DNA of 64,000 nt from IMG/VR virus record IMGVR_UViG_3300034072_000926, positions 41,621-105,620 of that record, one strand, 5' to 3'. Below, piece after piece: positions 34,105 through 63,302 of the stretch. This DNA comes from a virus. Below the pieces are notes generated by a model. It made no database searches. It had not been told where the DNA came from and saw only the letters and a list, made by a program, of their open reading frames with translations. Made by a program: the position numbers and the translations under genes. The first letter of the stretch is position 1. Each line of letters opens with the position of its first letter.

Positions 34105-34138
34105 ATGTTCCGATGTTCTCTTTATAACACCGACACTC

Positions 34139-34146: not shown

Positions 34147-34150
34147 CAAT

Positions 34151-34492: not shown

Positions 34493-34500
34493 GATAACTC

Positions 34501-35569: not shown

Positions 35570-35639
35570 GAGAAAAGGTGGCCCGTCCTGTTGTTCGGTG
35601 GAGCCATACCGCACCTAGGGAGTTGATCCCCTAGGGATT
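35570..35639. repeat. copy A of ~70-nt direct repeat with internal hairpin
   Basis: about 88% identical to 37054-37122; hairpin CCTAGGG/CCCTAGG. Confidence 0.6.
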
Positions 35640-35699
35640 GTGAGGCATAGGAGTCTACCGAAGCTTCTTCCTAACCTCGCTGCCGTTAGGCAGAAAATA

Positions 35700-36011: not shown

Positions 36012-36202
36012 TAGACTTCCTTTGCCTTAAATGCTTCTGCTTTCTGCTCCATGCTCTTGAGCAAATTAAACAGCTTAGTGCCAGCAGCAATCATCTTGCC
36101 GTAAGCGGGATGGTCAGTGTTCTTGTGCATCCAATCCTCAAATTCTAATAGTTGTTCTTGAGACATGCTGGTGATCAGCGCATCTGCTTTATGTGTAGCC
36201 AT
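36011..36202 (-). CDS. small hypothetical protein (63 aa)
   Basis: ATGA-type overlap with the downstream gene. Confidence 0.35.
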   Translation of the reverse strand: MATHKADALITSMSQEQLLEFEDWMHKNTDHPAYGKMIAAGTKLFNLLKSMEQKAEAFKAKEV

Positions 36203-36291
36203 TGTATGTTCTCCTTAGCGACGGCGTCAATTACAGAATAATCCGATTGGCGCCTCCAGTCCATCGCTTGCTCAATAAATACAGTAGGTAA

Positions 36292-37077: not shown

Positions 37078-37122
37078 TCGGTGGAGTCATACCGCACCTA
37101 AGGAGTTGATTGCCTTAGGAAT
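37054..37122. repeat. copy B of ~70-nt direct repeat with internal hairpin
   Basis: hairpin CCTAAGG/CCTTAGG (compensatory relative to copy A), followed by AATTTT. Confidence 0.6.
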
Positions 37123-37421
37123 TTTGCCAATTAGGCAGCCAGAGCTACTTCATTGGCGACAACTTCGTTGTCATTGACAGTTACGTCGTTGGTCTTTTAA
37201 GGAAACCACTCCTGTTATCTCTCGCAGCCGTTTGCGCACACGTCGATCCTAAGTTCAGGCCCATCATAACCGCTCTTTACAGAGCCGAGTCACTTCTTAG
37301 GGCAGTGACTCTCAGTTATGGTGGACCTGCCGGGTACCGCCCCCGGGTCCGTTGATTGCTATTAAGCTTTGGTCATCAATAACAACACCACTATAACAAT
37401 GGTGTTACGGGCTGTCAAGCC

Positions 37422-37721
37422 TTAATTAGCAGTCGCTGCCCTATATTGTTCGGCGGCGTCTTCCTTAGGTAGAGCACCAGCAACAATATGGGATTCACGA
37501 ATCGAAACAGTTGCGTCATTATCTGCCGCAGCCATCCAAGGCGTGAACATCACACGAACCTGCGTTGGGTTCTCTGGATTCTCAGCCAAGACCATAGCGA
37601 GTGGATTCTTGACCTTGACTTCTGAAGGGGTGAATTCGACAACCAGCGCGATGATCTCTTCGCCCGTCGATAGCTTCATAGTCATAATGGTAGGCTCTGT
37701 GGCCTTCTTCTCATGTAGCAT
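37422..37721 (-). CDS. hypothetical protein (99 aa)
   Basis: ORF track. Confidence 0.4.
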   Translation of the reverse strand: MLHEKKATEPTIMTMKLSTGEEIIALVVEFTPSEVKVKNPLAMVLAENPENPTQVRVMFTPWMAAADNDATVSIRESHIVAGALPKEDAAEQYRAATAN

Positions 37722-37730
37722 AGTAGGTCC

Positions 37731-38240
37731 TTATGGATGCTTTTGATTCAGTAGAGCTCGATGGAAGCCCTTATAATTGTCCAGAGTCATATAGCCTATG
37801 AACTTGCTGCCTGCGAACATTGGATAGCGTTCAAATTCACCAACCCTCAACACCGAGTCACCAAACCTCACAAATTCATCATCGGCGATCAGAAATGAAT
37901 CACCAGTGTTGACTTCTATCTTCCATTCTTTGTCGCCATATCCTGCACCGCCAATGAATGCAGGCGCACTATCCCATACCCTGACTTCGTAGGTCGGCTT
38001 GGGCAATGATTTGGCTTCTTCGTCGGCTGCAATTGCTTGAGCTAGACGAGCCTTGACATACATGTCTCGGTCTTCGACGGCACGAGCACTCTTGAGAGCG
38101 TCTCGAATCCATAGAGGCTGAGACAATGCGTCAATCTCATCATGTGTCATCTTGAACACATTATCTACGAGTTCCTGAAGTTGTGGCTTTTTCTTGGCCA
38201 CAATCTTCAGAAATTCTAATGGGCTTTTGCCGGATCTCAT
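37731..38240 (-). CDS. hypothetical protein (169 aa)
   Basis: ORF track; 4-nt overlap with glutaredoxin gene. Confidence 0.45.
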   Translation of the reverse strand: MRSGKSPLEFLKIVAKKKPQLQELVDNVFKMTHDEIDALSQPLWIRDALKSARAVEDRDMYVKARLAQAIAADEEAKSLPKPTYEVRVWDSAPAFIGGAGYGDKEWKIEVNTGDSFLIADDEFVRFGDSVLRVGEFERYPMFAGSKFIGYMTLDNYKGFHRALLNQKHP

Positions 38241-38476
38241 GCAGACTTCTTGAAGTAAGCATCAAGATCGGTGAAACCGCCGATATACTGCTCACCTAGC
38301 CAGATCTGAGGAACCGTGCGAGGGGCTGCACCAGTAACTGCGGTCACTCGTTCGATGAGTTCTTCACGCAGGTCGATAGCCGAGAGTTCAGTATATTCAA
38401 TACCCTTCTGAGTCAGAAGACGCTTTGCTGAGACGCAGTGTGGGCAGTTGGGCTTGGAGTAAACGATTGCAGTCAT
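38237..38476 (-). CDS. glutaredoxin (NrdH/T4 NrdC-like redoxin)
   Basis: 79 aa; CPHC active site near N-terminus, TVPQIW motif; adjacent to the RNR genes. Confidence 0.7.
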   Translation of the reverse strand: MTAIVYSKPNCPHCVSAKRLLTQKGIEYTELSAIDLREELIERVTAVTGAAPRTVPQIWLGEQYIGGFTDLDAYFKKSA

Positions 38477-38477
38477 T

Positions 38478-38744
38478 TCAATATCCTTCGATTATAATCT
38501 TGTTTTCTTCAACGATAATTTTGCAGTTCTTCTGAACGTGTCCAGTTTTTGCAAAGACTTCGACCATTGCTTCATAGGATCCTTCCTCAATATCATGTTC
38601 ACATGATATCACACCGGGAGTGAATCCTACTGGGACTTCATAGGGATTCTTGGCATCAAGATAGATCCTATGGGTAAGCTTGACCGAAGTTTCCACCTCG
38701 GTCAGCTTGTAGACATCCCCATCAATTGTGATACGAAACTTCAT
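38478..38744 (-). CDS. hypothetical protein (88 aa)
   Basis: ORF track. Confidence 0.4.
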   Translation of the reverse strand: MKFRITIDGDVYKLTEVETSVKLTHRIYLDAKNPYEVPVGFTPGVISCEHDIEEGSYEAMVEVFAKTGHVQKNCKIIVEENKIIIEGY

Positions 38745-39875
38745 TTAGAGCCTGAACGTGCTGAAGTCGTCGTCTTGTGCGTCTTGCTTAACGCCGCCAA
38801 CCACGTAGCTGGAGATTTCAGTTTCCTGTGGGGCAACCTGAACCGACTTCGAGGCAATCCAAGAAGAAGTCCAAGGCAGTGGGTTGCGAGCAGGAATCTT
38901 AAACGGCGCAGTCAAACCGACGCCGCGCATACGAGTGCCAGCAATGTAGTCCACATACTCATTCAAGAGAGCCTCGTTAAGACCGATGATGCTGCCATCC
39001 TTGAACAGATACTTGGCCCAAGCCTTTTCCTGTGCAATAGCGCTCATATACATCGAGATAGCCTGTGCTTCAGTTTCCTGTGCAATCTGAACGAAGTCTG
39101 GATCATCGGACTTCAAGATGTTGCGAAGCAGGTTCTGAGTAGCAGCAAGATGCAGGTTCTCGTCACGCGCAATGAACTTGATGATCTTTGCGTTACCTTC
39201 CATGCGCTTGTTTTCTGCAAATGCCCAGGAGCAAGCGAACGACACGTAGAAACGAACACCCTCAAGGATGTTGACACTCATCATAGTCAGCCACAGCTTC
39301 TTCTTCAGCTCATAGAGGTCAACCTTGACTTCCTTGCCATTGACCTTGTGAGTGCCGACACCCAATAGGTCATACCACTTCGACGACTCAATGAGATCAT
39401 CATAGTTGGCCGAGATGTCCTTGGCGCAATCGACGATTTCCTCGATGTGACCCATCGAATCGAAGACTTCTGAGGGGTTCGGATAGACGTTACGAATGAT
39501 GTGAGTGTAGGAACGGCTATGAATCGTTTCATAGAATGCCCAAGTCTGTGTCCATGTTTCCATTTCAGGAAGACTGGTGATCGAGCCAAAAGCCTGTGTT
39601 GGACTACGACCCTGAACCGAGTCGAGAAGGATCTGACGCTTTAGGTTTGAGGTAAAGATGTGCTTTTCATGATCGGACAGCTTTACAAAGTCGCCGCGAT
39701 CAGTATTGAGATCCACTTCCTCTGGTCGCCAGAAAAAGCCCAGCTGCTGGCTGGTTAGATGTTCCAGTTCAGGATACTTGACCTGGTCAAAACGCTGAAT
39801 GTTCACTGGACCAGCAGGGTCGAAGAACATCCTAGCAGTTAGATGATTAGGTGCATTTAGGTTGAAGACGCTCAT
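38745..39875 (-). CDS. nrdB: ribonucleotide reductase class Ia beta subunit
   Basis: 376 aa; di-iron ligand regions (EGVRFYVSFACSWAFAE, ARDENLHL), full-length NrdB-like. Confidence 0.9.
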   Translation of the reverse strand: MSVFNLNAPNHLTARMFFDPAGPVNIQRFDQVKYPELEHLTSQQLGFFWRPEEVDLNTDRGDFVKLSDHEKHIFTSNLKRQILLDSVQGRSPTQAFGSITSLPEMETWTQTWAFYETIHSRSYTHIIRNVYPNPSEVFDSMGHIEEIVDCAKDISANYDDLIESSKWYDLLGVGTHKVNGKEVKVDLYELKKKLWLTMMSVNILEGVRFYVSFACSWAFAENKRMEGNAKIIKFIARDENLHLAATQNLLRNILKSDDPDFVQIAQETEAQAISMYMSAIAQEKAWAKYLFKDGSIIGLNEALLNEYVDYIAGTRMRGVGLTAPFKIPARNPLPWTSSWIASKSVQVAPQETEISSYVVGGVKQDAQDDDFSTFRL

Positions 39876-40105
39876 TCGTCGGCCCCTTTCAATTTTTCGA
39901 TTTCATTTTCAATATTGCGGAGACGAATGCTGATGTAGATTGACAAACAGTTTGCCAGACCTTCACGCCCGTTATTTGTCACGATAGACGGAATCATCTG
40001 GTTATCCACTGCCACAGTAAAGGGCAGATGCAGTTGACCAGCCTTGTAAATCATCTGTTTCAAATATTCTCGCTCTTCCTCGAGAGCTTTGATTTGGGCG
40101 TTCAT
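39872..40105 (-). CDS. small coiled-coil protein (77 aa)
   Basis: 4-nt overlap with nrdB. Confidence 0.35.
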   Translation of the reverse strand: MNAQIKALEEEREYLKQMIYKAGQLHLPFTVAVDNQMIPSIVTNNGREGLANCLSIYISIRLRNIENEIEKLKGADE

Positions 40106-40202
40106 CGCCTTCTCCTTATTCCAGTATAATACGGAACTCTGGCTGCAAAAGTCTATTTTAGGTAGAACGACCCAGGGGTGATAAGCCCCTGGGTCTGGAC
40201 TT

Positions 40203-42509
40203 TTAGAGCTTGCAGGAATCGCAATCTTCGTCGTCTAGAATCTCTTCTAGTTCTTCATCACTCTTTGTCTCGTTGACGACGAGGGTGACGTCTTCCTGAC
40301 CGTCATAAGTGTTGAAGTAATAGAGGTTCTTGCCGCCATACTTGTAGAAGTTCAACAAGTCAGTGATCATGTCCTTCATGGAAATCTCACGATTCTCATA
40401 ATGGTCAGGATTGTAGCTGGTGTTGACACTTGCGCTCTGATCCAGATACTTGTTAAGAACACAAGCAACCTTCAGATAACCGGCAGGCCCGCGCTGATCC
40501 CAAAGTAGTTCATACTTGTTCTTCAGCTTGCCAATCTCAGGCACAACCTGCTTGAGCACGCCATGCTTGGAGACCTTCTCAGAAACCAGCGCACGAACAG
40601 GTTCAATGCCATTGGTCGAGTTGGACAACTGAGCAGAAGTCTCTGCGGGCATCAGAGCCATCAGAGTGGTATTGCGGATACCATTCTTGATCAGCTGAGC
40701 ACGGAGATCTTCCCAAGGCATACGAGTCGTTGGTTCGACTAGTTCATCCAGATCACGCTTGTAGGTGTCAATGGGCATAACACCTTGGCTATACTTGGAC
40801 TTGTAAGAACCTGGGCAGGCTCCCTTTTCCAAAGCCAGATCGGCTGAAGCCTTGATCAGGTAGTAGGACATGCCTTCCATGTATTCGTCGACCAGTGGAA
40901 GAGCAGCATCGTCATACTTCAGACCATTCTTCGCAAGGAAGTAGGCCAGGTTGATGATACCAACGCCGAGAGGACGAAGTTCCTTCGTAGCAAGTTCTGC
41001 GGCCTTGACTGGGTAATTCTGGTAGCTGAGAATTTCATCAAGGAAGCGAACAACCAGCTTTGCAGGCTTTTCGAAATCATGAGGTGTCTTGACACGACCC
41101 CAGTTGAGTGCGCTGAGGGTGCAAAGGCTGATGCGACCATTGGGATCGTCGAAGTGCTGCATTGGAACCGTAGGAAGTGTGATTTCCTGGCAGAGGTTGC
41201 TCTGCGTGATCGGAGCCAACTCAGGGATATACGAACCATGCGAGTTTGCGTGGTCAATGTTCATGAGGTAGATACGACCAGTTTCCTTACGCTCGGTCAT
41301 GAACGTAATAAACACATCGAGGGCCTTCATTGACTTCTTACGAATCTTTGGATCAGCTTCGTAATGAGTGTAGAGGCGATCAAACTCGTCCTGATCAGCA
41401 TAGAACGCATCAAGGAGACCCGGAACATCCTTAGGTGAGAAGAACGTAATGTCTCCACCTTCCACAAGACGCTTATACATCATGCGGTTAAACAGGAAGC
41501 TATAGTCGAGGTGACGAATACGATTCTGTTCAGTGCCCTTGTTGTTCTTCAGAACAATCAGGTCCTCAAATTCGTAATGCCAAAGCGGGAAGTGGACAGT
41601 AGCCGCACCACCGCGAACACCGCCTTGCGAACAGCTCTTAACTGCTGCCTGCATCCAGCGAACAAACGGCAAAAGACCAGTATGTTCAGCATCGCCATTG
41701 CGGATCTTCGAACCAAGAGCACGAACACGACCCATGTCAATACCAAGCCCTGCCTTCTGGCTGATATACTTGACAACGCTGCTATTTGTGGCAACGAGAG
41801 AATCAAGAGAGTCGTCAGTCGAAATGGTAACACACGAGCTGAACTGCTTCTGTGGCGTCCTCAGACCTGCCATGATGGGCGTAGGCAGGCTGATGTCGAA
41901 CTGGCTTACTGCATCGTAGAAATCCTTGATGTAGTCCATGCGGGTATCCTTGGGATACGCCATGAAGCCAATCGCGCTGATCAGAACCAGAGCAATCTGC
42001 GGGGTTTCAAAGAACTGACCGGTAACGCGGTCCTTGACGAGATACTTGCCGCGCCACTGTTCCATGCCAGCGTAGGCAATCAAGTCGTCTCGCGTATGCT
42101 TGACGATCTTCTCAAGCTTCTTCCACTCTTCGTCGTTGAAGTTGTCGAGCAGTTCCTGAGTGTAATGACCCTCAGCGACATTCTTCTCAACAACCTGCTT
42201 AACAGTCCAAGGCTCATAACGGCCATAGACTTCCTTACGAAGCTGGTAGCTAGCCAGACGACTAGCAACGAACTGGTAGTTTGGAGTTTCCTCGCTGATC
42301 AGTTCGCTTGCGCTCTTAACGAGCAGTTCGTGAATCTTGGTGCTCAAGACTCCGTCTTCTAGCTGAAGCTGGGCGCGGAGTTCTACCTCGGAAGGTGAAA
42401 CACCGGCAAGGTCTTCGCAGGCCCAGAAGACAACCTTATGAATCTTTTCGAGGTCTAATGCCTCTTTGCGGCCGTCACGCTTGACAACCATAATTGGTGT
42501 GTTGCCCAT
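40203..42509 (-). CDS. nrdA: ribonucleotide reductase class Ia alpha subunit
   Basis: ATP-cone VVKRDGRKE..D..KI; catalytic Cys/Asn/Glu regions; C-terminal CxxC tail; start set at MGNTPIM (42509) rather than track start 42557, because CTAAATAT sits 32 nt upstream of it. Confidence 0.9.
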   Translation of the reverse strand: MGNTPIMVVKRDGRKEALDLEKIHKVVFWACEDLAGVSPSEVELRAQLQLEDGVLSTKIHELLVKSASELISEETPNYQFVASRLASYQLRKEVYGRYEPWTVKQVVEKNVAEGHYTQELLDNFNDEEWKKLEKIVKHTRDDLIAYAGMEQWRGKYLVKDRVTGQFFETPQIALVLISAIGFMAYPKDTRMDYIKDFYDAVSQFDISLPTPIMAGLRTPQKQFSSCVTISTDDSLDSLVATNSSVVKYISQKAGLGIDMGRVRALGSKIRNGDAEHTGLLPFVRWMQAAVKSCSQGGVRGGAATVHFPLWHYEFEDLIVLKNNKGTEQNRIRHLDYSFLFNRMMYKRLVEGGDITFFSPKDVPGLLDAFYADQDEFDRLYTHYEADPKIRKKSMKALDVFITFMTERKETGRIYLMNIDHANSHGSYIPELAPITQSNLCQEITLPTVPMQHFDDPNGRISLCTLSALNWGRVKTPHDFEKPAKLVVRFLDEILSYQNYPVKAAELATKELRPLGVGIINLAYFLAKNGLKYDDAALPLVDEYMEGMSYYLIKASADLALEKGACPGSYKSKYSQGVMPIDTYKRDLDELVEPTTRMPWEDLRAQLIKNGIRNTTLMALMPAETSAQLSNSTNGIEPVRALVSEKVSKHGVLKQVVPEIGKLKNKYELLWDQRGPAGYLKVACVLNKYLDQSASVNTSYNPDHYENREISMKDMITDLLNFYKYGGKNLYYFNTYDGQEDVTLVVNETKSDEELEEILDDEDCDSCKL

Positions 42510-42540
42510 ATTTTTCCTTGTTCTCTTTTTCTTAGGGCAG

Positions 42541-42548
42541 ATATTTAG
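42541..42548 (-). promoter_or_regulatory. late-promoter-like CTAAATAT upstream of nrdA
   Basis: plus-strand ATATTTAG. Confidence 0.35.
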
Positions 42549-42600
42549 TGAGTCCAAAATTTCATTCTGTGGCGCGTTTAAGTGCTCTTAGAACTGCTAA

Positions 42601-43065
42601 TTAGACTTCCTGGTGTCCGCCCTCAGGGTTAACACGGTAGCTCACCAAATATGCACAATCTACCCTCTCAATGTCAAAATTGATAACACTGGCATGGAGG
42701 TAATTTAGCGCCCATTTGTTATCAACCAGGAGAACCATCGTTTGAAACGATTCCTTTGAATTGCGGACATAATGTAGGCGCAAACGCTCAGGAGACCAAC
42801 CCGCTAGGATGAGGGTCTGTTCCATGAGATATGCCTTTGCTGTATCGTCGAAATCACCCTGGCTGAGAAGTTCCCAAGGTGTTGGCCAAGCAGTCGTGTC
42901 GTCATAGTCTAGGACGTAGTTAGATGTAGGTGCCTGAGATACCCATACTGAAACAGCTTTTAGCTGGTCCATTTCTTCCAAATCGTTTAGGTTTTGACGG
43001 AAATCTCTCCAAGAAGTGAGTCGCTCACTAGGAGACAGTAGGAAGGGATTCATAGAACTCTCCAT
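42601..43065 (-). CDS. hypothetical protein (154 aa)
   Basis: ORF track. Confidence 0.45.
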   Translation of the reverse strand: MESSMNPFLLSPSERLTSWRDFRQNLNDLEEMDQLKAVSVWVSQAPTSNYVLDYDDTTAWPTPWELLSQGDFDDTAKAYLMEQTLILAGWSPERLRLHYVRNSKESFQTMVLLVDNKWALNYLHASVINFDIERVDCAYLVSYRVNPEGGHQEV

Positions 43066-43073
43066 TAAGGAAT

Positions 43074-43724
43074 TTAGACTGCTTGGGTAGGTGGCGAAGG
43101 ATCTACCTCAGGGGCAGACCATTCTCGTCCACTCAGCGATAGCGTTAGCTCAAGACCAAAATTGTTCCTAAACGCTAGCCAAGTAATACCTGTGTCAGCA
43201 CCGGTCAGATCATAACGAGTTAACTGGAAATGACCAGTTGTGCTCGTAGGAAGATTTGCCGATCCGCCTGGCCAGTTCAAAGAACACATCGAGCCAGAAG
43301 TTAAGTTGACAACAGATTGATCTGGATCACTAGGATGAACGCAGACCGTCATAATGCCCATAAGCTTGACCGAACCACCGTTGCCATAGAGGCTAAAATC
43401 GTAAGTAGCAAAGTCACGTTCGTTATGGACGAAAAGTGGGAAGACGCTGGTCATGTTGCTGTTCGAGCCACACACCGCAGACACAAGAGGTCCGTGATAG
43501 TAGACATCGCCGCCAATGCCACGCTGAATATCAAGTTCAGTTAGAAGCTTGATATTCTGATAGGGATAGGATTTCCTGCCAGACACGCTGGGATGAGTCT
43601 GTGCGCCGATGAAAACTTCACCAGTGTCAGTAGTCATTCCAATCTCGCCATCTTCTAGAGCATTAGGGAGTTCCCCGCTAGTGCCCCTTCGATGTTGGAT
43701 CCTGGAGATCTGATAAACAGCCAT
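43074..43724 (-). CDS. hypothetical protein (~217 aa)
   Basis: ATG at 43724 (track uses upstream TTG); AATAAATA late-like motif about 25 nt upstream. Confidence 0.45.
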   Translation of the reverse strand: MAVYQISRIQHRRGTSGELPNALEDGEIGMTTDTGEVFIGAQTHPSVSGRKSYPYQNIKLLTELDIQRGIGGDVYYHGPLVSAVCGSNSNMTSVFPLFVHNERDFATYDFSLYGNGGSVKLMGIMTVCVHPSDPDQSVVNLTSGSMCSLNWPGGSANLPTSTTGHFQLTRYDLTGADTGITWLAFRNNFGLELTLSLSGREWSAPEVDPSPPTQAV

Positions 43725-43796
43725 TCTGTCCTCCAATTTACCCTATATTTATTCTCCGCCGCTTGACTTAATCCTATTTCGTGCTAAAGATATCAT

Positions 43797-44195
43797 ATGA
43801 GCGATATTATTGTGCCACCGATCGGAACTAAGGTTGAAGTCCTCAGCCGTTATACTCTTCCTTGGATGAACGAGTATCGTCGTCCAACCGTTGGAGTAGT
43901 GGCCCATAGCAATTCATGGGACAAGCCAGGCACCTTCCGCCTCATTGGAACGGGAGGTATTGGCGAGGCTGTTGTCTCTCTGGATCGTCTCGAATACCTC
44001 AAGATTATCAAAGATTCAACAACGTCGACCACGGCAGCCAAAAGCGAAGTCTCGAGTTTCGAGATCAAAGGCAGTCAGGGCGATATCTATATCGTAACCT
44101 TAGACGGCGACAAGGCAAAATGCACATGTCCAGCTGGAAGCCATGGTCGAGTCTGTAAGCATATCAAGATGGCTCGGGAAGAGCACCATTCTTGA
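43797..44195 (+). CDS. SWIM-type zinc finger protein
   Basis: 132 aa; C-terminal CTCPAGSHGRVCKHI (CxCx(n)CxH). Confidence 0.5.
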   Translation: MSDIIVPPIGTKVEVLSRYTLPWMNEYRRPTVGVVAHSNSWDKPGTFRLIGTGGIGEAVVSLDRLEYLKIIKDSTTSTTAAKSEVSSFEIKGSQGDIYIVTLDGDKAKCTCPAGSHGRVCKHIKMAREEHHS

Positions 44196-52412: not shown

Positions 52413-52721
52413 TCTTCTTTCCCTTCTTTACGTGAATACGGGTCTTGATCTTAGGACCACGATTCTCTTGGATGATCTGCTCAAATTGAAGAGACCATAG
52501 GTATGAAGCCTGTTCACGGATATTTCCAGCGACAGGCGTAATAAGAGGCTCATCGCCAAACAGCTCAGAAAGAGTCATTGGTTGCTCACAGGTTCAAAGT
52601 TGGATCCGTGGTATTTAGCTTATCGTGCAATCTGCGGAGCAATGTAGCTAGTTAAAGCAACATACCCAAAAAACGCACTTTACGGTAAATAACGGTAACG
52701 GTTCGCGTAGGGAGACTACAT

Positions 52722-52967
52722 ATGGGTGATCTATTCAAAAGTGTAGTCGAAATGATCGCGAAGGGCGAAGCAGGAGCTCTGACGGCTATTCTCCTAGCTA
52801 TCATTGGTGTCTTGGGTTGGTATTGTTTTCGCCTGATGAAGCAACTGGAAAAGAAGGACGAGAAGATCTATAAGATCATCGACGACTATTCCAAGAACAA
52901 CATCACTATCACTGACGCTCTAAACGGCCTCAAGACGGTGCTTATTGAGATTAAGGCAAAGCTCTAA
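52722..52967 (+). CDS. small single-TM protein
   Basis: 81 aa; LTAILLAIIGVLGWYCF TM; TAATG overlap with the PAS gene. Confidence 0.4.
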   Translation: MGDLFKSVVEMIAKGEAGALTAILLAIIGVLGWYCFRLMKQLEKKDEKIYKIIDDYSKNNITITDALNGLKTVLIEIKAKL

Positions 52968-54628
52968 TGTGGTTTAAAGATCGGAAGGAAAAGAAGAAGC
53001 AGCGTGAAGCTGTTTTGAAAGCGGCGCTTGACTCTAGCGAAGCCCTTGAAAAGGCCGCTAAAGGCACGATGAACCTTGCCGAAGATGTAACCAAAACCCT
53101 TCAAAGCAAAATTGACGACTATGCTCGGCAGATTGACCAAACGTCTAGTCTGCTGAGCGACGCTCTCATTCTAGTTGATGACCACGGAGTCATCGAAAGT
53201 TTCAATCCAGCGGCTGAAAAGATGTTTGGTATTGCTAGGAGACATATCAGGGGGAAGAGCATTTCTAAGCTCTTCGAATTCCCCAAAGATACTATCATCG
53301 ACCCAGTGTTCATGGATGAACTAACCGTAAAGGTCAATGAGAATGATCCTGCAGCCACTGTCCATTATGAAGACTTCATGGGCATCCGTAAAGATGGCAT
53401 GACTTTCCATGTGGACGTCAGTGCCAGCAAATTCACCAGGAACAACTCGAAAGTCCATTACATCATCCTAGTCCACGATGTGACCCACAAGGTGGCGAAT
53501 AGCAAAATGGTCGAAGATCTTGCTCAGAGGAACATGGAACTCCTTGCTACCATTGATGCATCAAATACCGGATTCATTATCCTAAGCCCTGATGGTAGCG
53601 ACTTCAAGATCAACTTCGTCAACATGGGCTTTAGTCGTCTCACTGGGTATTCTAGGACTCAGATCAAGAATATGAGCCTTATGGATCTTCTTGGCATCGA
53701 GCAAACTTTCTGGTCGGTTCGTCGTAGCCTTCTTGAACAGAAAGAAGCACGTCACGAAGTCCAGCTAGAGATCGGAACATGTCAGACTATCTGGTTTGAC
53801 ATTCAGATCACACCAGTGTTCAACGATGGTATCTGTAGTCAGTGGATCTTAGTGTTCTATGACACTACTGCACTAAAGAAAGCATATCACGATCTCAGGA
53901 AGAGCGAATCACATTTCAAGGCGTTTAGTGATGCAAGTTCCGAGTCCATGCTTATCCACAACTTTGGTCAGGTCATTGATTGGAACGATCGCCTCAACGC
54001 ATTGACTGGCTATACAGATGAAGAGATTGAGAAACTCATGCCTCTTGATCTTGTCCATCCTCTCGAACGTGAGAAGATCAGAGAAGAGGTTCATTTAACT
54101 GGTAACAATAGCTATGAAACGCTATTCATGACCAAACAAGGCGATGTTCGTGAGGTTGCAATCAACAGTCGTTCCATTGAATGGGATAACACTGATGCAA
54201 GGATTTCAATTGTTCGAGATGTAACCGAATACAAGGATATCGAGACTCAGTTGAAGACTGCAAGGGAGCGTTATCGCACGGTCATCGATAACACGATCGA
54301 TATGGTCATTTGCTTCAATAGCGATTTCGAGATTACCTTCTCGAATCAGACCTTCCGTGACTACTATGAAGTAGAGCTAGAAGACATCAATGGGTTCTCA
54401 CTCTTGGAGATCATCCCTGAGACTGACCATAAGAAGTTCAAGGAATATATGATGGAGATCGCCCCTGGGAATGATGTTCGTCGAGGTATTCACCGTGTCC
54501 AGCGTCATGGAGACATTAGGATGCAGGATTGGATCGACCGTGGCATCTTTGATGAAGATGGAAATCTCATTGAAATTCAGAGTGTTGCTCGAGACGTAAC
54601 TAGCCTTTTGCCTCCACCTACTACTTGA
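52967..54628 (+). CDS. four-PAS-domain protein without recognisable output domain
   Basis: 553 aa; four repeats of about 110 aa each with a PAS-like core (..D..G.I...N......G........G........). Confidence 0.65.
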   Translation: MWFKDRKEKKKQREAVLKAALDSSEALEKAAKGTMNLAEDVTKTLQSKIDDYARQIDQTSSLLSDALILVDDHGVIESFNPAAEKMFGIARRHIRGKSISKLFEFPKDTIIDPVFMDELTVKVNENDPAATVHYEDFMGIRKDGMTFHVDVSASKFTRNNSKVHYIILVHDVTHKVANSKMVEDLAQRNMELLATIDASNTGFIILSPDGSDFKINFVNMGFSRLTGYSRTQIKNMSLMDLLGIEQTFWSVRRSLLEQKEARHEVQLEIGTCQTIWFDIQITPVFNDGICSQWILVFYDTTALKKAYHDLRKSESHFKAFSDASSESMLIHNFGQVIDWNDRLNALTGYTDEEIEKLMPLDLVHPLEREKIREEVHLTGNNSYETLFMTKQGDVREVAINSRSIEWDNTDARISIVRDVTEYKDIETQLKTARERYRTVIDNTIDMVICFNSDFEITFSNQTFRDYYEVELEDINGFSLLEIIPETDHKKFKEYMMEIAPGNDVRRGIHRVQRHGDIRMQDWIDRGIFDEDGNLIEIQSVARDVTSLLPPPTT

Positions 54629-54845
54629 CAAAAGGTTATAAGACTTTACTCTAAAGCCTAAGGAGTAAGTCATGTCATCACAAATCCCAGCCTACCGATT
54701 CAAGATCATCCACAAGGATGACAATGTAACCGTGCGATGTAATGACATATTGCTCGCTGCTATCAAAGAAGCGAAGAAATCATCCTGATACAAGAAAACG
54801 CCAGTGTTTCCACTGGCGTTCCTCGTTTTCGGACTTTCTAAAAAC

Positions 54846-55163
54846 TTAGAAAGTGAATGCCGAAATCACAACTGCGAAACCGCAAGCAGCGGTAACTTCG
54901 TTCGAGAACGCAGTCAGGTCGCCGAAGATTTCGTTGTGCTCAACAGCGAAGTTGAGAACAGTTGCCGATGGGGTGCCCATAACAACAGGCTGTGCGCGGA
55001 TCGAGATTGCTTCGATCAGCTTGTCCATCTTAACCGAGTGCTGCTCTTCGTCGCCAACTAGGGTGGTCAGACCGCCCGAAGCAACAGTAGCAGTGAACAT
55101 TGGCAGGCCGCCAGACAGGAACTGATCTGGGGTCTTTGCGAAGCCGTGAACCTTCTGAGTCAT
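54846..55163 (-). CDS. hypothetical protein (105 aa)
   Basis: canonical TATAAATA 36 nt upstream. Confidence 0.45.
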   Translation of the reverse strand: MTQKVHGFAKTPDQFLSGGLPMFTATVASGGLTTLVGDEEQHSVKMDKLIEAISIRAQPVVMGTPSATVLNFAVEHNEIFGDLTAFSNEVTAACGFAVVISAFTF

Positions 55164-55219: not shown

Positions 55220-55423
55220 CTAACGACGGATAATAGCAGGGGCTACTTCAGAGGTCTTCTTGCGCTTCTTCTTACGTTCAGCAGCATCGTAGATACCCTT
55301 GTGGCCATTCGGATCAAAGCCAGCACCAATCCCACCAACACTGGTCGCTACATTGCCTGATGCCGATGCGCCGGCGGTTGCCGTTTCGAGAATAGGGGTC
55401 GCTACGATTTCTGTCCAACGCAT
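55220..55423 (-). CDS. small protein (67 aa), N-terminus MRWTEIVATP
   Basis: shares its N-terminal 7 residues with the 46951..47319 product. Confidence 0.3.
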   Translation of the reverse strand: MRWTEIVATPILETATAGASASGNVATSVGGIGAGFDPNGHKGIYDAAERKKKRKKTSEVAPAIIRR

Positions 55424-56328
55424 TATTTCACCTGTAATCCGAGATCCTTGAATGAGTCAGGTATTTCAACCTTCAAGCTATTTAAGCGCTCATGATAGAT
55501 ATTACGGATTGTGTTGCAGTCCTCCCAGGTGTAAATGCGACGACAGGTCATCCAGAGACCTTCAATGGTTTTCATTTCAGAACCATTAAGATAAGGACGT
55601 TCACCGAACAACAGTTCTGGCATTAACGCAGGATCATTTATAACTTCTCGGGTGGCAGGAAGAGCTGACGGGAAGATTTGAAGAAACTCATCCTTCGAGA
55701 CTTCCTTGAAGTCCTGAACTCGACCCTTGCCGTCCTTACGCATAGGACGATAGCGATAGCGCCATACACAACCACGATCATGAAAGAACGTTGGACCCAC
55801 TCGAGCAATGACTTTACCATCGTCTTCTAACACCCAATCACTGTTGAAGGCCACAATAGCCTTGATCATTTCTGTTCGGTACAACCCCTTATAGTTTGAA
55901 GTATCTTGCGGCTGTCGATACCAGGGTATACTGGCCAAAGTCAGGGCCGGAGAGAAGTAGGAGAACTCCTGCCACTCGAAGTTGCCGAACATGAAGTCAA
56001 TCTGCACATATCCGTTGTCAGGATTGCCGTCAATAGGGACCGCCGTGAAGATCTGATTATTACCAGGACGAGGCTTAACGTGGTCCTCTCCCAAGAAGGC
56101 GATCAGCTGACTAGCGACCTTTGCCTGGTCATAACGAGTAATCTCGAGGTTGAGATCAATGTCGCCGGAGTCAGGATTCTTTCCTGCACTACCCAGCATA
56201 GCTTCGCGTAACTCAGAGGTTTTGTTGAGGGTGTAGTCGGGCCACTTCTTTTCTAGCCAGAACAACGTGTGTTCTATCTCTTGTCGAAGGATCCGTCGGG
56301 TAACTCCCTCGAATGCTTTACCGCCCAT
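55423..56328 (-). CDS. hypothetical protein (301 aa)
   Basis: ORF track. Confidence 0.45.
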   Translation of the reverse strand: MGGKAFEGVTRRILRQEIEHTLFWLEKKWPDYTLNKTSELREAMLGSAGKNPDSGDIDLNLEITRYDQAKVASQLIAFLGEDHVKPRPGNNQIFTAVPIDGNPDNGYVQIDFMFGNFEWQEFSYFSPALTLASIPWYRQPQDTSNYKGLYRTEMIKAIVAFNSDWVLEDDGKVIARVGPTFFHDRGCVWRYRYRPMRKDGKGRVQDFKEVSKDEFLQIFPSALPATREVINDPALMPELLFGERPYLNGSEMKTIEGLWMTCRRIYTWEDCNTIRNIYHERLNSLKVEIPDSFKDLGLQVK

Positions 56329-57517
56329 CTTCGATTCTCTTTCTCGTATCGTAGAACATGTTCAGAGTTCGTTGGTGCAAATCCTCATGCAGATAACTGA
56401 TCCTGTTGGCTTCGGATAAGTCAAACATATTCGGGTTAAGGACCAACTTATGTCTCGATGCTTTGTATCTCTCTAATAGCACATCCAGGCGCTCAAGTCG
56501 CTTTGCTTTTGGCCAATCCTTTGTCCGGCTCAAGAAACTCGGTCGATTAGGACGCCGACCACCTACAATCCAGTATTTCACAAGATGTGTAAACTTGTTT
56601 AGTTCGGCGAAGCGTGGATTGTTCATCTTGAACTTCAATCCAGAAGATTCAACAACCATTCCTTCGTGTAGGGAATACCAACTACTATGTCCGAGATTTA
56701 TATATCGGAGATGATGGTTAGTGATGACCTGGTGTGCTATCCGTTCTTTAATGGATTTAATGACATTATGATAATGGGTTTTGATTACGATGCGTTCTGT
56801 CTTGATCTGTTCTTTTAGTTCAGACCATTTACGACCATTAGTCTTAGGATGAGTCCTAGCGAGACTGGCTTCCAATATGTCTTGATAAGTGAACTCATCA
56901 ACATTGCTCATTCGCTGAGAGAACGAAATAAGCAACTGATATGCAGCGGTTATAGTGTCATTGAGCTCGCTAGTTCTGTTCTCGTTAACCTTTTGATTCA
57001 CCGCGAAGCCACAAATAGTCGGATTATTAATCTCGCTGAGTGTCCTACCATCTAGAGAGACTTGGGTTTTCGGTAGAAGATTCGTTCGGAACGTCTTGAT
57101 CAATTTCTCAGTTTCGCGGGAGACCATGAAGTTCGAATATGTAATAACGATCTTGAATCTAGAATGCTCCCAAGTATGATAAGGAACACTATTAGGGAGT
57201 TCGCCCTGGATGATCTCTGCCCCGAAGGTGTTTCCCTTTTCGATGAGACCGAGACTTATGAGTTCGCTGACAAGCATCATCGAGCAATGATGAGCGTGAT
57301 GATATGTCTGAGCCCAACACTCGTCCGGCCATTCTGCTAGACTATAACAGGGAGGCGCACCCTTGCGCTTGGAAAAGAATCGACCCTCCTCATCAAGACC
57401 AAACTCAAGCGAGGAGCCATCTAGCTTCTCACTGATTGTCCAGCCGCGATTGAACGAATCCAGTAGTGTCTGGATCGGGAGATCTTCTATGTGAGGTAGA
57501 CTGGTCATGCCCTGCAT
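56318..57517 (-). CDS. hypothetical protein (399 aa)
   Basis: ORF track. Confidence 0.45.
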   Translation of the reverse strand: MQGMTSLPHIEDLPIQTLLDSFNRGWTISEKLDGSSLEFGLDEEGRFFSKRKGAPPCYSLAEWPDECWAQTYHHAHHCSMMLVSELISLGLIEKGNTFGAEIIQGELPNSVPYHTWEHSRFKIVITYSNFMVSRETEKLIKTFRTNLLPKTQVSLDGRTLSEINNPTICGFAVNQKVNENRTSELNDTITAAYQLLISFSQRMSNVDEFTYQDILEASLARTHPKTNGRKWSELKEQIKTERIVIKTHYHNVIKSIKERIAHQVITNHHLRYINLGHSSWYSLHEGMVVESSGLKFKMNNPRFAELNKFTHLVKYWIVGGRRPNRPSFLSRTKDWPKAKRLERLDVLLERYKASRHKLVLNPNMFDLSEANRISYLHEDLHQRTLNMFYDTRKRIEDGR

Positions 57518-58660: not shown

Positions 58661-58942
58661 TTACTCCTTGGAGAATCCAGAATAGCGTTCCAATAGTCGC
58701 TCTAACATATTGGCAGCGAGTGCTAAACCCTCTTCGACGCCACGAGCGTAGTCCAGATTGTCGTCCGACTCACTGTAACTGCGAAGTTTGAAAATCATAT
58801 CATTAACATCTTCTAAAAGATATGGAGAGTCATCGAGGTCAGGGACCTCGATGGTCTCCAGAATCATGTCGTCCTCCTGGGACATCGTGGTGCTTTCAGT
58901 TAACCTGAAATACCTCCTAATGTCATCGGGTTGACTGTCCAT
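58661..58942 (-). CDS. acidic hypothetical protein (93 aa)
   Basis: CTAAATAGGG about 27 nt upstream (plus-strand 58968-58977). Confidence 0.4.
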   Translation of the reverse strand: MDSQPDDIRRYFRLTESTTMSQEDDMILETIEVPDLDDSPYLLEDVNDMIFKLRSYSESDDNLDYARGVEEGLALAANMLERLLERYSGFSKE

Positions 58943-60519: not shown

Positions 60520-61551
60520 TTATACTAAGCGTTGCCGCCTTACACCTATTTCTAGCTTATTCTTTGTCATTGCATCAATAATTGACCACACCGTATAGAG
60601 TTTTCCGTAAGCTTTTACCGCATCTGCGGCGTCCTTGATGCCAGTGTCCCAACGAGGAAAGGACACATACCATCCCTCACTGAGGGCAGTATCAACAAGC
60701 TTACCGCCTTGTTCTACGCGGTCGGGAACAACAATGATTTTCTTGCCAGTTTGATTAAGCCAACGTGCTTGGTCAGGCATGACCTTGTCACCAAGCATCG
60801 CAATACCATTTATCGCGATACCATCGAAGGGTCCTTCACAGACGAATAGAAATTCCCAGTCCTTCTTGATCGCTTCGGTGTTGAAGAGATAACGAGGCTG
60901 GACTTCACTAAAGTATCGCATTGGTGACGAATTGTCGATCACACGAGCAGTCCAACCGACGACTTCATGTTCCCAGAAGAAGGGAATGATAACTCGACGA
61001 TTCAATCCATTTGTCTTCTCAGGTGTCCAATAGAAGTCTGCCCCTAAGAGGACTTCATCACCACGAGTTGACAAGTAGGCAAGAGCATCGAGGAAGTCTG
61101 GATCGGTTAGTTCATGCTCGAGCCAGAACGTGATTGGTTTGGCACCCTTAGGCAAAGGCACTGGCTTGAACTCTAGTCGCTCGAGAAGTTCACGAGGGGC
61201 CATGGAGACCAACTCACCCTTCTCAAGCATGTTCTTCCTCAGTTCCTCAACATAGAAACCAAGCCAATCAAGTTCTTCCTTAGGCATACCCAGCCACTGG
61301 AAGTAATCTTTCCACTTTGTAGTGAATCGACTTCCAGGTGTCCAAGCAGTCTTAAAGCCACAGTTGAAGCAGGAGATTGTTGTTCGACCGTCGAAGTCAA
61401 ACATCAATCCTCCACGCTTCTTAGTATCAGGTCGGGACTGTCCGTTATGAATGCAGCATGGACCATTGAATCTCATCCACCTACTAGGAGTGGATTGCGC
61501 TCCAGATATATGCTTGATTAGGGCATCGTAGACGAGAGTCAAAGGGTTCAT
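60520..61551 (-). CDS. DNA primase (T4 gp61-like; zinc ribbon + TOPRIM)
   Basis: 343 aa; CC..C..C zinc ribbon (PCCIHNG...SCFNCG); TOPRIM-like CEGPFDGIAI and VVPDRVEQG; lies beside the helicase as in T4. Confidence 0.65.
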   Translation of the reverse strand: MNPLTLVYDALIKHISGAQSTPSRWMRFNGPCCIHNGQSRPDTKKRGGLMFDFDGRTTISCFNCGFKTAWTPGSRFTTKWKDYFQWLGMPKEELDWLGFYVEELRKNMLEKGELVSMAPRELLERLEFKPVPLPKGAKPITFWLEHELTDPDFLDALAYLSTRGDEVLLGADFYWTPEKTNGLNRRVIIPFFWEHEVVGWTARVIDNSSPMRYFSEVQPRYLFNTEAIKKDWEFLFVCEGPFDGIAINGIAMLGDKVMPDQARWLNQTGKKIIVVPDRVEQGGKLVDTALSEGWYVSFPRWDTGIKDAADAVKAYGKLYTVWSIIDAMTKNKLEIGVRRQRLV

Positions 61552-63302
61552 TAGAGTTCAAACAATCCATCGTTCATGATAGCCAGCTTTGGCTTGTTTT
61601 CGGCCAGGGTTGCAGCTTCTGCTTCCTTCCTAGCCTTCGTGACCTGCTTGTGTTCCTTGATGTCACCCAACTCGAAAGTTGAATAGTCAAGAACGCCACG
61701 TTCTGCATTGTCACTTGCAAGATAGTTCAGGATCTTACGATTCTTCTCAAGGTAGTCGTTGTAGTTCTCAACCTTGAAAGCTTCCTCGATGACACCCTTG
61801 AGCTCAAGCAACTGGGCCGGAACCTTCGCGGGATCATTCGAGTCGTAGAGTTCCTGAGACTCATAAACGCCTTCTAGGTGAACCTGGACGTTATGATTCA
61901 TCAGCATTGCATAGGTAACAACGTCCCATGTCGAAGTGAACTTAGGGTCCACGTTGACACAGATATCACCCATTGTGAGGCGCTTGCCGATTTCAGTCTC
62001 AACAAAGCGAGAACCTTCGACACCCTTGAGACGTTCGTCGAACATGTCCTTCAGAACATCAAGGAAGGGACGATCAGCTTCCGAGCCCTTAGCAGGGAGA
62101 GGAATCTTCTGTCCGTTCTCATCCAACTTATAGACAATCCTGTCCTTACCTGTCGATATCATTTCGTGACCGATTTGTTCAATACCGTCCTTATCGAAAT
62201 AGGTATTGGTAGGCAGGTAGTGACGACCGTCTAGCTTCTCACCCTGAATTGACCAGCTGTCCTTGTTCAGGTTATAGCCGAGGAAGACCTTGCCATAAGC
62301 TGCTAGGGTGAAGGGTGACGAAACGTCATAGGAGATCGTGAAGTTCGGATTGATCTGTTCACGAACCTGACGCTGGATGGTGGTATAGATGCAACCGTGC
62401 TGGAACTTGCCAACACCAAGAAAGTGCATCCAGTCCTTGTCCTGCAGGAGACCGTCATCCCTCATATTGAGGATACGACCCAAGCCCATCTCAAAGTTTT
62501 CCTTGTGATGGCTTGCAAGCGACCAACCCTCAAAGGGATAGTGCTTGACGTTCTCATACCAAATCTTAGATTCGGTTGGATTACGACCCTGAACAACATT
62601 TAGGAACTTCGTTGCGCCAGGAACTCGGTTAGCCACGAAGTAATCGTTGTTGATGATCGTCTGCAACATACAGGCGTAATAGAGACGATCATTGATGTCA
62701 TTGACGTTGCCACCATTCTTGATAATAAGGGCATCGAGTGCCGCCTTATTATTGAAATCCGGAGACTGGAAGGTTTCCATCTTCGGAGTACCATCTTCGT
62801 TGAAGATCTTCTTCTTGTTGGCGTCAATGGCTTGCAAGAAGCCAGTCGTCGATTCAAGACGCTCAAGGTGACGGTCGATGTTACCAAGACCAATACCACC
62901 AGTTGGGAAGTCGAGGACCATTGACCAATCACAGTTGGCTTCCATCCAGCGCATCATCTTCTCGCGGGTCTTATCGCCCTCGAACTTGATCGCGCCTGTC
63001 TGGATCTGAAATCCACCAGAGTCGCCCAACACCGTGAACATGCCAGGTGTGCGATCACGACCAGTAACCATGTCCTTGCGATGCGTGACTGCATTGCCCT
63101 TAGCAGCCTGTCCGGCCGAATATAGAGCGCTGTTCAGATAGAACAGGTTCGTGTTCGAATCAAAGAAATTCAAATCACTACGAGGGATAGGTGGCTCCCT
63201 CTTTGGGTTTTCCGCATTCACGTAGCGGACATACATTTCTGAGATAGCCGGTGTGAACCGAGCATAATCTCGATATCTCTTGGAATAGTCAATACCGGAC
63301 AT
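61551..63302 (-). CDS. tRNA-guanine-transglycosylase superfamily protein (possible DpdA-like DNA transglycosylase)
   Basis: 583 aa; VLGDSGGFQ motif matching the TGT DSGGFQ active-site region, followed by a MVLDFP segment resembling TGT DIVMIFDEC. Confidence 0.45.
   Translation of the reverse strand: MSGIDYSKRYRDYARFTPAISEMYVRYVNAENPKREPPIPRSDLNFFDSNTNLFYLNSALYSAGQAAKGNAVTHRKDMVTGRDRTPGMFTVLGDSGGFQIQTGAIKFEGDKTREKMMRWMEANCDWSMVLDFPTGGIGLGNIDRHLERLESTTGFLQAIDANKKKIFNEDGTPKMETFQSPDFNNKAALDALIIKNGGNVNDINDRLYYACMLQTIINNDYFVANRVPGATKFLNVVQGRNPTESKIWYENVKHYPFEGWSLASHHKENFEMGLGRILNMRDDGLLQDKDWMHFLGVGKFQHGCIYTTIQRQVREQINPNFTISYDVSSPFTLAAYGKVFLGYNLNKDSWSIQGEKLDGRHYLPTNTYFDKDGIEQIGHEMISTGKDRIVYKLDENGQKIPLPAKGSEADRPFLDVLKDMFDERLKGVEGSRFVETEIGKRLTMGDICVNVDPKFTSTWDVVTYAMLMNHNVQVHLEGVYESQELYDSNDPAKVPAQLLELKGVIEEAFKVENYNDYLEKNRKILNYLASDNAERGVLDYSTFELGDIKEHKQVTKARKEAEAATLAENKPKLAIMNDGLFEL

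Follow-up and report, generated by a model that had tools for sequence, protein, structure and literature searches.

Introduction

By fold and by sequence, the closest described systems to the gene product considered here are multi-PAS enzymes, namely FixL, DosP (EcDOS), the Brucella LOV-PAS histidine kinase (LOV-HK), NifL and MmoS, which have tandem PAS domains, helical linkers and a helix before the first PAS domain. The same layout was found in a 553-amino-acid (aa) protein that is encoded at positions 52967..54628 of a 64,000-nucleotide (nt) stretch of viral DNA (IMG/VR virus record IMGVR_UViG_3300034072_000926, positions 41,621 to 105,620; this whole stretch is hereafter called the window), and the best fold matches of the protein were DosP (3e-17), LOV-HK (4e-16), the PAS-PAS region of FixL, MmoS and NifL. 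Unlike these enzymes, the phage protein has no DHp/HATPase, GGDEF or EAL domain, no haem His and no flavin residues, and its proposed membrane anchor is a separate polypeptide of 81 aa. The short LOV proteins PpSB1-LOV and PpSB2-LOV resemble it in being PAS proteins without a fused enzymatic effector and, together with the LOV domain of YtvA, they were the top matches of its family profile in the PDB at the second PAS domain (profile positions 194-321, E about 3e-17), where phototropin LOV domains were also among the best matches. However, the short LOV proteins are single domains that bind flavin mononucleotide via the NCRFLQ motif, whereas the phage domain has other residues in place of the photoactive Cys and of five more flavin contacts. 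The core of PpsR also uses several PAS domains as interaction modules, and its structure without the helix-turn-helix (HTH) domain (4hh2) was a high-ranking fold match at 5e-16, while animal PER is a PAS protein that acts only through protein contacts. Unlike the phage pair, PpsR has a DNA-binding HTH and neither PpsR nor PER is known to have a membrane partner; moreover, neither has any sequence relationship to the phage protein beyond the PAS fold. PAS proteins without fused outputs are already known, and what is new here is the seemingly obligate, separate membrane partner and the conservation of the pair in jumbo phages.

Sensing of the environment by phages is known from the arbitrium peptides and from VqmA-Phage, in both cases in temperate phages that choose between lysis and lysogeny. 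VqmA-Phage of vibriophage VP882 is a PAS sensor that responds to a small molecule and directs the development of the phage (PMC8284805); one PAS domain is fused to a DNA-binding domain in this protein, which has a homologue in the host. Unlike VqmA-Phage, the 553-aa protein combines four PAS domains with a separate membrane partner and lacks a DNA-binding domain, and it belongs to T4-related jumbo phages. VqmA-Phage was the only studied phage PAS sensor found in our literature search, which also returned no paper on jumbo-phage PAS proteins or on the PAS gene of the phages Atu_ph07 or AP-J-162. With moderate confidence, we read the 81-aa protein and the PAS protein (the anchor/PAS pair) as a phage-owned, membrane-tethered and catalysis-free PAS sensor pair. 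If the pair senses a host cue, big lytic phages would also monitor the physiology of their host, and the pair would offer a compact, genetically tractable case of PAS signalling via a separate membrane anchor. Its cultured carriers are Atu_ph07, which grows on Agrobacterium tumefaciens C58, and Phosso, which grows on Sinorhizobium meliloti, and because of these two phage-host systems the question is directly testable.

The PAS protein and its small membrane partner

The two genes and the parts of the second product, the evidence for which includes AlphaFold2 (AF2) models, are as follows:

52722..52967, + strand: 81-aa single-pass membrane protein, predicted N-out/C-in, the proposed anchor or partner (hydropathy, AF2, synteny)
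52967..54628, + strand: 553-aa protein with an N-terminal helix and four PAS domains, without an output domain (ATG start; Pfam, NCBIfam, AF2)
52979..53152, + strand: N-terminal helix, aa 5-62, among the most conserved parts (AF2 helix)
53153..53482, + strand: PAS1, aa 63-172, FixL/DosP-like without the haem ligand (PDB sequence matches)
53561..53866, + strand: PAS2, aa 199-300, LOV/PAS_9-type, degenerate and dispensable (PDB matches of the family profile)
53936..54226, + strand: PAS3, aa 324-420, PAS_3 type with an HPxxR motif (Pfam PAS_3 at 337-408)
54290..54601, + strand: PAS4, aa 442-545, the last PAS domain and the most conserved one (Pfam PAS_4 at 441-546)

The initial annotation had described a four-PAS protein without a kinase, GGDEF/EAL or DNA-binding domain, and this description was borne out by Pfam, by the NCBIfam model TIGR00229 and by AF2. 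PAS profiles matched four stretches of the protein well above their cut-offs: PAS_9 (4.3e-38; 130 bits with a cut-off of 27), PAS (1.3e-29; 103 bits), PAS_4 (4.8e-25; 88 bits) and PAS_3 (3.4e-17; 63 bits), and a Pfam scan down to E = 1 returned no domain other than PAS. TIGR00229 (sensory_box) likewise matched four stretches, with 175 bits and an E-value of 7.9e-52. The AF2 model, which was built on 37 family sequences and had a mean predicted local distance difference test (pLDDT) score of 77.6 (mostly 80-90 inside the domains), placed a helix at residues 5-62 and PAS folds at 66-171, 202-299, 327-418 and 446-543 with helical linkers between them. Its four alpha/beta units agree with the five-stranded antiparallel sheet flanked by helices that characterises a PAS domain, and the top Foldseek matches of the model were multi-PAS proteins throughout. 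The C-terminus lies 8 residues past the 'DVT' motif of PAS4, which leaves no room for an output domain; the protein stops at the PAS/DHp junction, the point from which the DHp helix of a sensor kinase would extend. A test of the protein as a sensor histidine kinase using Pfam and NCBIfam revealed no HisKA, HisKA_2 or HWE DHp domain and no HATPase_c domain. The homologue in Atu_ph07 is publicly annotated as 'multi-sensor signal transduction histidine', but it is not a histidine kinase. The PAS protein has no hydrophobic segment of its own, with a Kyte-Doolittle maximum of 1.05.

The PAS protein has no output domain, but it is not an orphan, since a small gene directly upstream, which the initial annotation had overlooked, encodes a dedicated partner. 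The stop codon of the 81-aa open reading frame (ORF) overlaps the start codon of the PAS gene in the sequence TAATG, and the PAS gene is translationally coupled to this upstream gene. A single stretch of the 81-aa protein is strongly hydrophobic (Kyte-Doolittle maximum 2.08 at residues 18-36), and because of the charges that flank it, +2/-3 towards the N-terminus and +6/-3 towards the C-terminus, an N-out/C-in orientation with a 45-residue cytoplasmic tail is predicted. Its AF2 model (pLDDT 78.7) consists of helices at residues 2-14, 17-57 and 63-80, in which the membrane helix extends into the cytoplasm and the chain then folds back as a hairpin. The cytoplasmic tail was found to be far more conserved than the membrane span. 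No Pfam family matched the 81-aa protein and the match to phrog_1009 was weak (7e-4).

Conservation along the PAS protein, expressed as the frequency of the majority residue per region of the PAS family, was uneven. The most constrained parts were the N-terminal helix, PAS4 and linkers 2 and 3 (0.74-0.75), with 0.75 for residues 20-62 of the helix and also for PAS4, while PAS1 to PAS3 ranged from 0.58 to 0.66 and PAS2 was the least conserved region (0.58). PAS3 has the invariant residues H331, W339, N340, D361, H364, P365, R368, K390, G392 and W406, and in PAS4, C449, R506, H509, R510 and D521 are invariant among others; neither of these two domains had a sequence match to a solved structure at E <= 0.01.

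The proposed check of the cofactor-binding residues gave a negative result for FixL-type haem in PAS1 and for LOV-type flavin in PAS2, the two cofactor classes that are recognisable at the sequence level. All 12 of the PDB sequence matches of PAS1 were haem PAS domains, including BjFixL (3.4e-7) and EcDOS/DosP. However, I111 occupies the column of the proximal His200 of BjFixL, where V, I, R, L, M or S but never His occur among 37 family members, and an invariant Glu135 stands in place of the distal Arg220 of FixL; the alignment of PAS1 with FixL is approximate, with a 4-residue gap around the F helix. Moreover, no conserved His or Cys was found anywhere in PAS1 of the 37 family members, and haem binding by PAS1 was rejected on the absence of the FixL-type ligand residues in this approximate alignment. 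In PAS2 of the window, SLMDLLG stands where LOV domains have DCRFLQG, six of the six canonical flavin residues are replaced, and the column of the photoactive Cys holds L, I, M or P in 37/37 family members. Flavin binding by PAS2 was rejected as well, since the LOV-type ligand residues are absent, and the whole domain is missing in phage Phosso and in the family member P0060. The Arg, Gln, Asn and Gln flavin contacts are kept only in P0045 and P0049, whose pocket is of a nearly intact LOV type (NPRMMQG, LLNYRKDG, IGIQYD), although Pro occupies the position of the photoactive Cys; to judge from these residues, the two proteins might still bind flavin and could show the former role of PAS2. A label of PAS2 as 'LOV-derived' was softened to 'LOV/PAS_9-type' because a distant relative has the common non-flavin variant GRNPRILKSG.

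Within the 64-kb window, the statement that the signalling pieces lack a catalytic partner held. Neither a histidine kinase nor a GGDEF/EAL, STAS or sigma-type partner is encoded there, the only HATPase_c match of the window is the B subunit of topoisomerase II, and a two-component test found no histidine kinase among its roughly 90 ORFs that could pair with the receiver domain protein described below. A query that combined HisKA and HATPase_c matched 49 phage records, among which were neither Atu_ph07 nor Phosso, although a kinase of the HWE/HisKA_2 type could escape this query.

Conservation of the anchor/PAS pair

No near-identical DNA for the PAS region was found among deposited phages, and a protein search revealed full-length homologues of the PAS gene in two deposited jumbo phages only, Agrobacterium phage Atu_ph07 (490 kb, 27% identity) and Sinorhizobium phage Phosso (469 kb, 32% identity). 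Based on these PAS homologues, the gene content and the presence of translation initiation factor IF3, the window is a piece of an Atu_ph07-like, T4-related jumbo phage. IF3 is a marker of the 'group 2.2' jumbo phages, and the protein of Atu_ph07 was cited as an example by Iyer et al. (PMC7824862). The exact PAS and receiver proteins of the window were also found together on one 465,259-bp metagenomic contig (PAS copy P0122). In an NCBI copy of the PAS protein (P0001, encoded on a contig of 389,450 bp), a few residues are not those of the window protein, e.g., H169L, and the copy ends in PPPVA where the window protein ends in PPPTT.

The PAS family comprises about 59 clusters of 550-567 aa, after which the scores fall sharply to generic PAS proteins. 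For the anchor, 51 clusters were found on contigs of the same sizes as those of the PAS family, and in 48 of these clusters the length is exactly 81 aa. An 81-aa ORF lies directly before the PAS gene in both Atu_ph07 and Phosso, and a small ORF precedes it also in the viral contigs L003 and L004, in the metagenomic loci L006-L008 and in L009, so that none of these inspected relatives lacks it. Between the phage of L006 and the window, the anchor is 84% identical and the PAS protein 48%, and the anchor is the more constrained of the two.

A hidden Markov model search of 1.84 billion representative proteins extended the anchor family to 166 clusters, nearly all of 78-105 aa; one match of the anchor profile, P0123 with 3151 aa, was discarded as a repetitive coiled-coil artefact, and scans of IMG/VR with single proteins gave no match to distant anchor homologues. 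In three remote cases, with anchors 28-41% identical to that of the window, the next gene encodes a helix plus PAS and no other Pfam domain. The anchors have 88 aa in L014, 97 aa in L015, again with a 1-nt overlap, and 92 aa in L018/L019, and the downstream PAS proteins have 321 aa in L014, at least 331 aa in L015, where the contig end cuts the gene and the C-terminus is not seen, and 288 aa in L018/L019. All of them begin with a helix of about 65 aa, and the window protein shares with the distant partners in L014, L015 and L018 an N-terminal helix of some 60-70 aa in which the motif L..AA..T..LA......L recurs. The number of PAS domains per relative varies from about 1-2 to 4. Because the motif of the N-terminal helix is recognisable throughout these relatives, the invariant unit appears to be the anchor followed by a helix and a variable number of PAS domains. 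Taken at the level of sequence and gene order, the anchor and PAS genes look like a pair that large jumbo phages related to T4 have conserved as part of their core genes. In another remote case, the contig (L017) ends at the anchor gene.

A gene for a GH19 protein (chitinase class I, endolysin-like) was found back-to-back with the pair in L015 (3..596, - strand) and L016 (57..701, - strand). This adjacency occurs in one distant lineage only and is the sole hint of a link to lysis.

Operon layout and promoter-like element

The pair forms a + strand islet whose flanking genes are on the - strand, and the following further elements were assigned to it:

52686..52691, + strand: TAAATA, a promoter-like element 30 nt before the small ORF (hexamer distribution)
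52710..52714, + strand: GGGAG ribosome-binding site of the small ORF (direct reading)
54672..54788, + strand: candidate third ORF of the operon, 38 aa, uncertain (AAGGAG site before the ATG)
54797..54830, + strand: strong hairpin terminator with a 10-bp stem, 6 G-C pairs and a T-rich tail, which closes the operon

TAAATA is rare, with only 24 copies on both strands of the window. Of these, 17 stand no more than 120 nt ahead of a gene start, although such positions make up so little of the sequence that about 2 copies would be expected there; most of the gene-upstream copies are 22-35 nt before the start codon. Examples are found at 52610..52619 (reverse strand) and upstream of 54846..55163, 58661..58942 and 61551..63302, and besides the copy before the anchor gene, one on the other strand serves a divergent 57-aa gene. 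Moreover, the orthologous operons in L003, L004 and L006 have retained an (A/G)TAAATA on their upstream side. The hexamer resembles the T4 late -10 box TATAAATA, and a promoter class that is specific to phages and related to this box probably has it as its -10 element. Since it also precedes many non-structural genes, no temporal class was assigned to it. No sigma-70-like promoter for the operon was found on the + strand, and an extended 14-nt motif around TAAATA was rejected as a repeated element because it is not repeated.

Short + strand ORFs follow the PAS gene also in Phosso, L008 and L003, with sequences that are not clearly alike to the 38-aa ORF. Convergent to the operon on its downstream side lies a gene for a 105-aa protein (MTQKVHGFAKTPDQFLSGG...; 54846..55163, - strand), which is conserved in L003, L004, L009 and L010 and matched no Pfam or PHROG family. 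Also shortly past the operon, at 55423..57517 (- strand), a gene for a 301-aa protein without a family match overlaps one for a 399-aa protein that had a weak RNA-ligase match below the cut-off (PF09414, E 0.0014). Near the module of the distant locus L018 are genes for an RNA ligase of the T4 Rnl1 type and for a metallophosphatase.

The stand-alone receiver

The second signalling gene of the window and its surroundings comprise:

34151..34492, - strand: 113-aa stand-alone receiver, i.e., a single-domain response regulator (profile and PDB matches)
34501..35019, - strand: 172-aa ORF directly upstream of the receiver gene, 8-nt gap (ORF listing)
34031..34104, - strand: tRNA-Thr with anticodon GGU, 46 nt downstream of the receiver gene (ARAGORN)
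33572..33871, - strand: DUF4326 protein, 280 nt from the receiver gene with the tRNA between them (Pfam, 6.3e-28)
32892..33536, - strand: YqiJ/NfeD-like protein
31119..32870, - strand: flotillin/SPFH YqiK-like protein
30348..31064, - strand: XpaC-like protein (Halogen_Hydrol)
29137..30342, - strand: TelA

A receiver-only protein encoded near a tRNA had been reported, and our analysis confirmed it, with the gene 18.5 kb from the PAS gene and 46 nt from that of tRNA-Thr. The receiver matched Sma0114 (2lpm, 2.9e-10), SdrG (5ieb, 2.3e-5) and also 2msw in the PDB, the PhyR family at 9.6e-8, and the NCBIfam model PRK13435 at 9.2e-13 over residues 3-110, a match that is below that model's own family cut-off. 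Its residues E8, D9, D53, T79 and K97 (followed by P98) align with D12, D13, D57, T87 and K109 of CheY. The phosphoacceptor triad of Asp, Thr and Lys is present as D53, T79 and K97, and the pocket residues E8/D9, D53, T79 and K97 are also kept in the relatives P0069 and P0070. In its size, lack of an output domain and intact Asp pocket, the receiver is like Sma0114, SdrG, MrrA, LovR and the receiver of PhyR. Unlike the regulators of the Sma0114/SdrG type, it is encoded by a phage and has the signature PGLICTGE. Membership in the FAT GUY group was rejected, as only P, T and G of the signature PFxFATGY (PFIFATGY in Sma0114) are kept and the receiver is similar in its sequence as a whole but not in this motif.

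In the general stress response of alphaproteobacteria, SdrG acts between HWE/HisKA_2 kinases and PhyR, to which it passes phosphate via PhyT (PMC5898713), and single-domain regulators are documented as phosphate relays or sinks for HWE/HisKA_2 kinases (PMC5898713, PMC5964349). To judge from its matches, the receiver is most likely a phosphorylatable regulator of this alphaproteobacterial, HWE/HisKA_2-associated type that would draw or shuttle phosphoryl groups in a host phosphorelay. A point against this assignment is the match to Pfam Response_reg, which covers residues 4-79 only and reaches 28.0 bits with a cut-off of 30.2.

The earlier proposal treated the PAS protein and the receiver as parts of one story, which our searches did not support. 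Homologues of the receiver were found neither by tblastn of 50,697 phage records nor in a scan of the IMG/VR viral contigs, and in the same searches no receiver was detected in Atu_ph07, Phosso or the other PAS-carrying phages. Only three close relatives were found among 5.8 billion proteins, and a search of 185,579 genomes returned no relative of the receiver or of the flotillin gene. Because it has so few relatives while the PAS gene belongs to a deep family, the receiver appears to be a separate, recent and lineage-restricted acquisition that is evolutionarily unlinked to the ancient PAS module; as a rare recent pick-up, it could draw phosphate out of a host phosphorelay or rewire it. A receiver with 60% identity is encoded in L011 directly after a 174-aa ORF, which, compared by layout, is the same arrangement as that with the 172-aa ORF in the window; the latter matched no Pfam or NCBIfam family.

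The receiver lies at the edge of a run of bacterial-type genes (TelA, XpaC-like, flotillin, YqiJ, DUF4326 and the tRNA). DUF4326 is a predicted NAD-linked enzymatic domain in jumbo phages that would tie NAD-based signalling to DNA modification (PMC7824862). The four contiguous genes from TelA to YqiJ (29137..33536, - strand) are of a bacterial membrane-stress type, lie where the G+C content of the window is highest (0.55-0.56 vs about 0.48) and look like a horizontally acquired envelope module.

Proposed function and alternative explanations

In the mechanism that we propose for the pair, the 81-aa product would be a single-pass inner-membrane protein with its conserved helical tail toward the cytoplasm, and the 553-aa product would be a soluble protein with a long N-terminal helix followed by four PAS domains. 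The tail of the anchor would bind the conserved N-terminal helix, through which the PAS array, probably as a dimer, would be held at the membrane. In the infected cell, the array would then respond to a cue from the cytoplasm or from close to the membrane and pass it on via altered protein contacts, of PAS4 and/or the anchor, rather than by catalysis. Read in this manner, the pair is probably an unstudied way in which jumbo phages sense the state of the infected cell. More tentatively, and with less confidence than in the sensor pair as such, we suggest that the anchor followed by a helix and PAS domains is an undescribed, phage-specific, binary, membrane-tethered and catalysis-free sensor, encoded by a core gene pair of T4-related jumbo phages, with which strictly lytic giant phages could read the energy, redox or envelope state and adjust the timing of replication or lysis.

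Several observations weigh against the sensor pair. The predicted template modelling score of the PAS-array model is 0.35, which leaves the arrangement of the domains and the oligomeric state undefined. A homology between the tail of the anchor and the N-terminal helix of the PAS protein, considered because of a shared 'IDDY', was rejected, as hhalign returned a 7-residue match with a probability of 1.8%. For the remote anchor clusters, six contexts were inspected, which is a small sample; L012 and L013 are too short to show PAS and have a helical N-terminus at most, and the PAS assignment in the 288-aa protein of L018/L019 comes from one modest match (E 3.7e-6). Additionally, as both PAS domains with a recognisable cofactor ancestry, PAS1 and PAS2, have lost the ligating residues, the array could be a scaffold and not a sensor. 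Such a non-sensing scaffold, in which degenerate PAS modules organise a phage complex at the membrane, e.g., for replication or assembly, without responding to a signal, would fit the loss of the canonical haem and flavin ligands, the variable number of PAS domains among the relatives and the position of the module beside replication genes. However, the invariant polar residues H331, H364, R368, K390, C449, R506, H509, R510 and D521 suit a binding pocket, linkers such as 'RERY' are invariant in the manner of signalling helices, and we consider the scaffold to be quite unlikely. The idea that the pair times lysis, with the small membrane protein as a holin- or antiholin-like component that the PAS protein gates according to the energy state of the cell, is in our view very unlikely. 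The 81-aa protein does have a single span and a charged tail, the GH19 gene does lie next to the pair in the lineage of L015 and L016, and the T4-late-like TAAATA does stand before the operon, but this hexamer also precedes the many non-structural genes mentioned above, and a tail that is more conserved than the span is the opposite of what is expected of a pore former. Moreover, the neighbours in the window and in the Atu_ph07-like phages are genes of a replication region (DnaB is 4.4 kb away) and not lysis genes, and the cell-wall hydrolase of the window is 35 kb away.

PER-type PAS proteins block their bHLH-PAS partners, and the phage PAS array could similarly be a decoy that heterodimerises with PAS kinases or cyclases of the host and silences them, while the receiver would take up phosphate from the same pathways. 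The array may jam host kinases in this way, yet nothing specific speaks for it, and we hold the decoy to be unlikely. It would agree with the missing output domain and with an end exactly at the PAS/DHp junction, with the likeness of PAS1 and PAS2 to the sensor domains of FixL, DosP and LOV kinases, and with the likeness of the receiver to regulators that serve HWE/HisKA_2 kinases, which often bear LOV or PAS domains. However, the best matches outside the family are only 21-27% identical and the scores drop sharply after the phage family, the module is kept across hosts (Agrobacterium, Sinorhizobium and many metagenomes) with no sign of tracking one kinase, and the PAS gene and the receiver are not co-inherited. 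A soluble decoy would also need no dedicated membrane partner from the phage, and because such a conserved, phage-encoded partner exists, the pair is better read as a phage-internal module than as a decoy fitted to one host kinase. A different explanation concerns the receiver only. In jumbo phages, Iyer et al. (PMC7824862) described divergent receivers, termed cRec, that are linked to NAD/ADP-ribose enzymes and RNA ligases, and the window receiver could by analogy be a phosphoesterase that acts, together with DUF4326 and the tRNA, on cyclic ADP-ribose or 2',3'-cyclic phosphate ends. Like cRec, it is a stand-alone receiver of a jumbo phage near NAD-linked and RNA genes, here DUF4326 at a distance of 280 nt and the tRNA in between. 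On the other hand, cRec was described as divergent and as never occurring in two-component systems, a description that sets it apart from the window receiver, which matches classical receivers well (Sma0114, PRK13435 and the PhyR family, with the E-values given above). The conserved neighbour of the receiver is moreover the upstream 172-aa ORF, while the contigs of its relatives end before the position of DUF4326, and a cRec-type enzyme is in our opinion doubtful and rather improbable.

Genomic setting

Apart from the anchor/PAS pair and the receiver region, the window carries replication and nucleotide genes, namely those for the type II topoisomerase subunits, DnaB and both subunits of ribonucleotide reductase, as well as a nucleotidyltransferase of the CCA-adding/poly(A) polymerase type (PolyA_pol domain). 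Further genes encode ClpX, IF3, an L7/L12-like protein and homing endonucleases, besides TelA, the XpaC-like protein and the flotillin/YqiJ pair that were described above. IF3 is full-length with a TTG start (2880..3410, - strand), ClpX is an unfoldase with a zinc finger (3468..4718, - strand), and the protein with the L7/L12 C-terminal domain is encoded by one ORF within 136..20318. The several mobile-endonuclease genes comprise an HNH gene at 22882..23667 (- strand) as well as SegE-type GIY-YIG and SWIM genes among the ORFs within 20318..44195, where a protein with an Mtd_N (major tropism determinant N-terminal) domain is also encoded.

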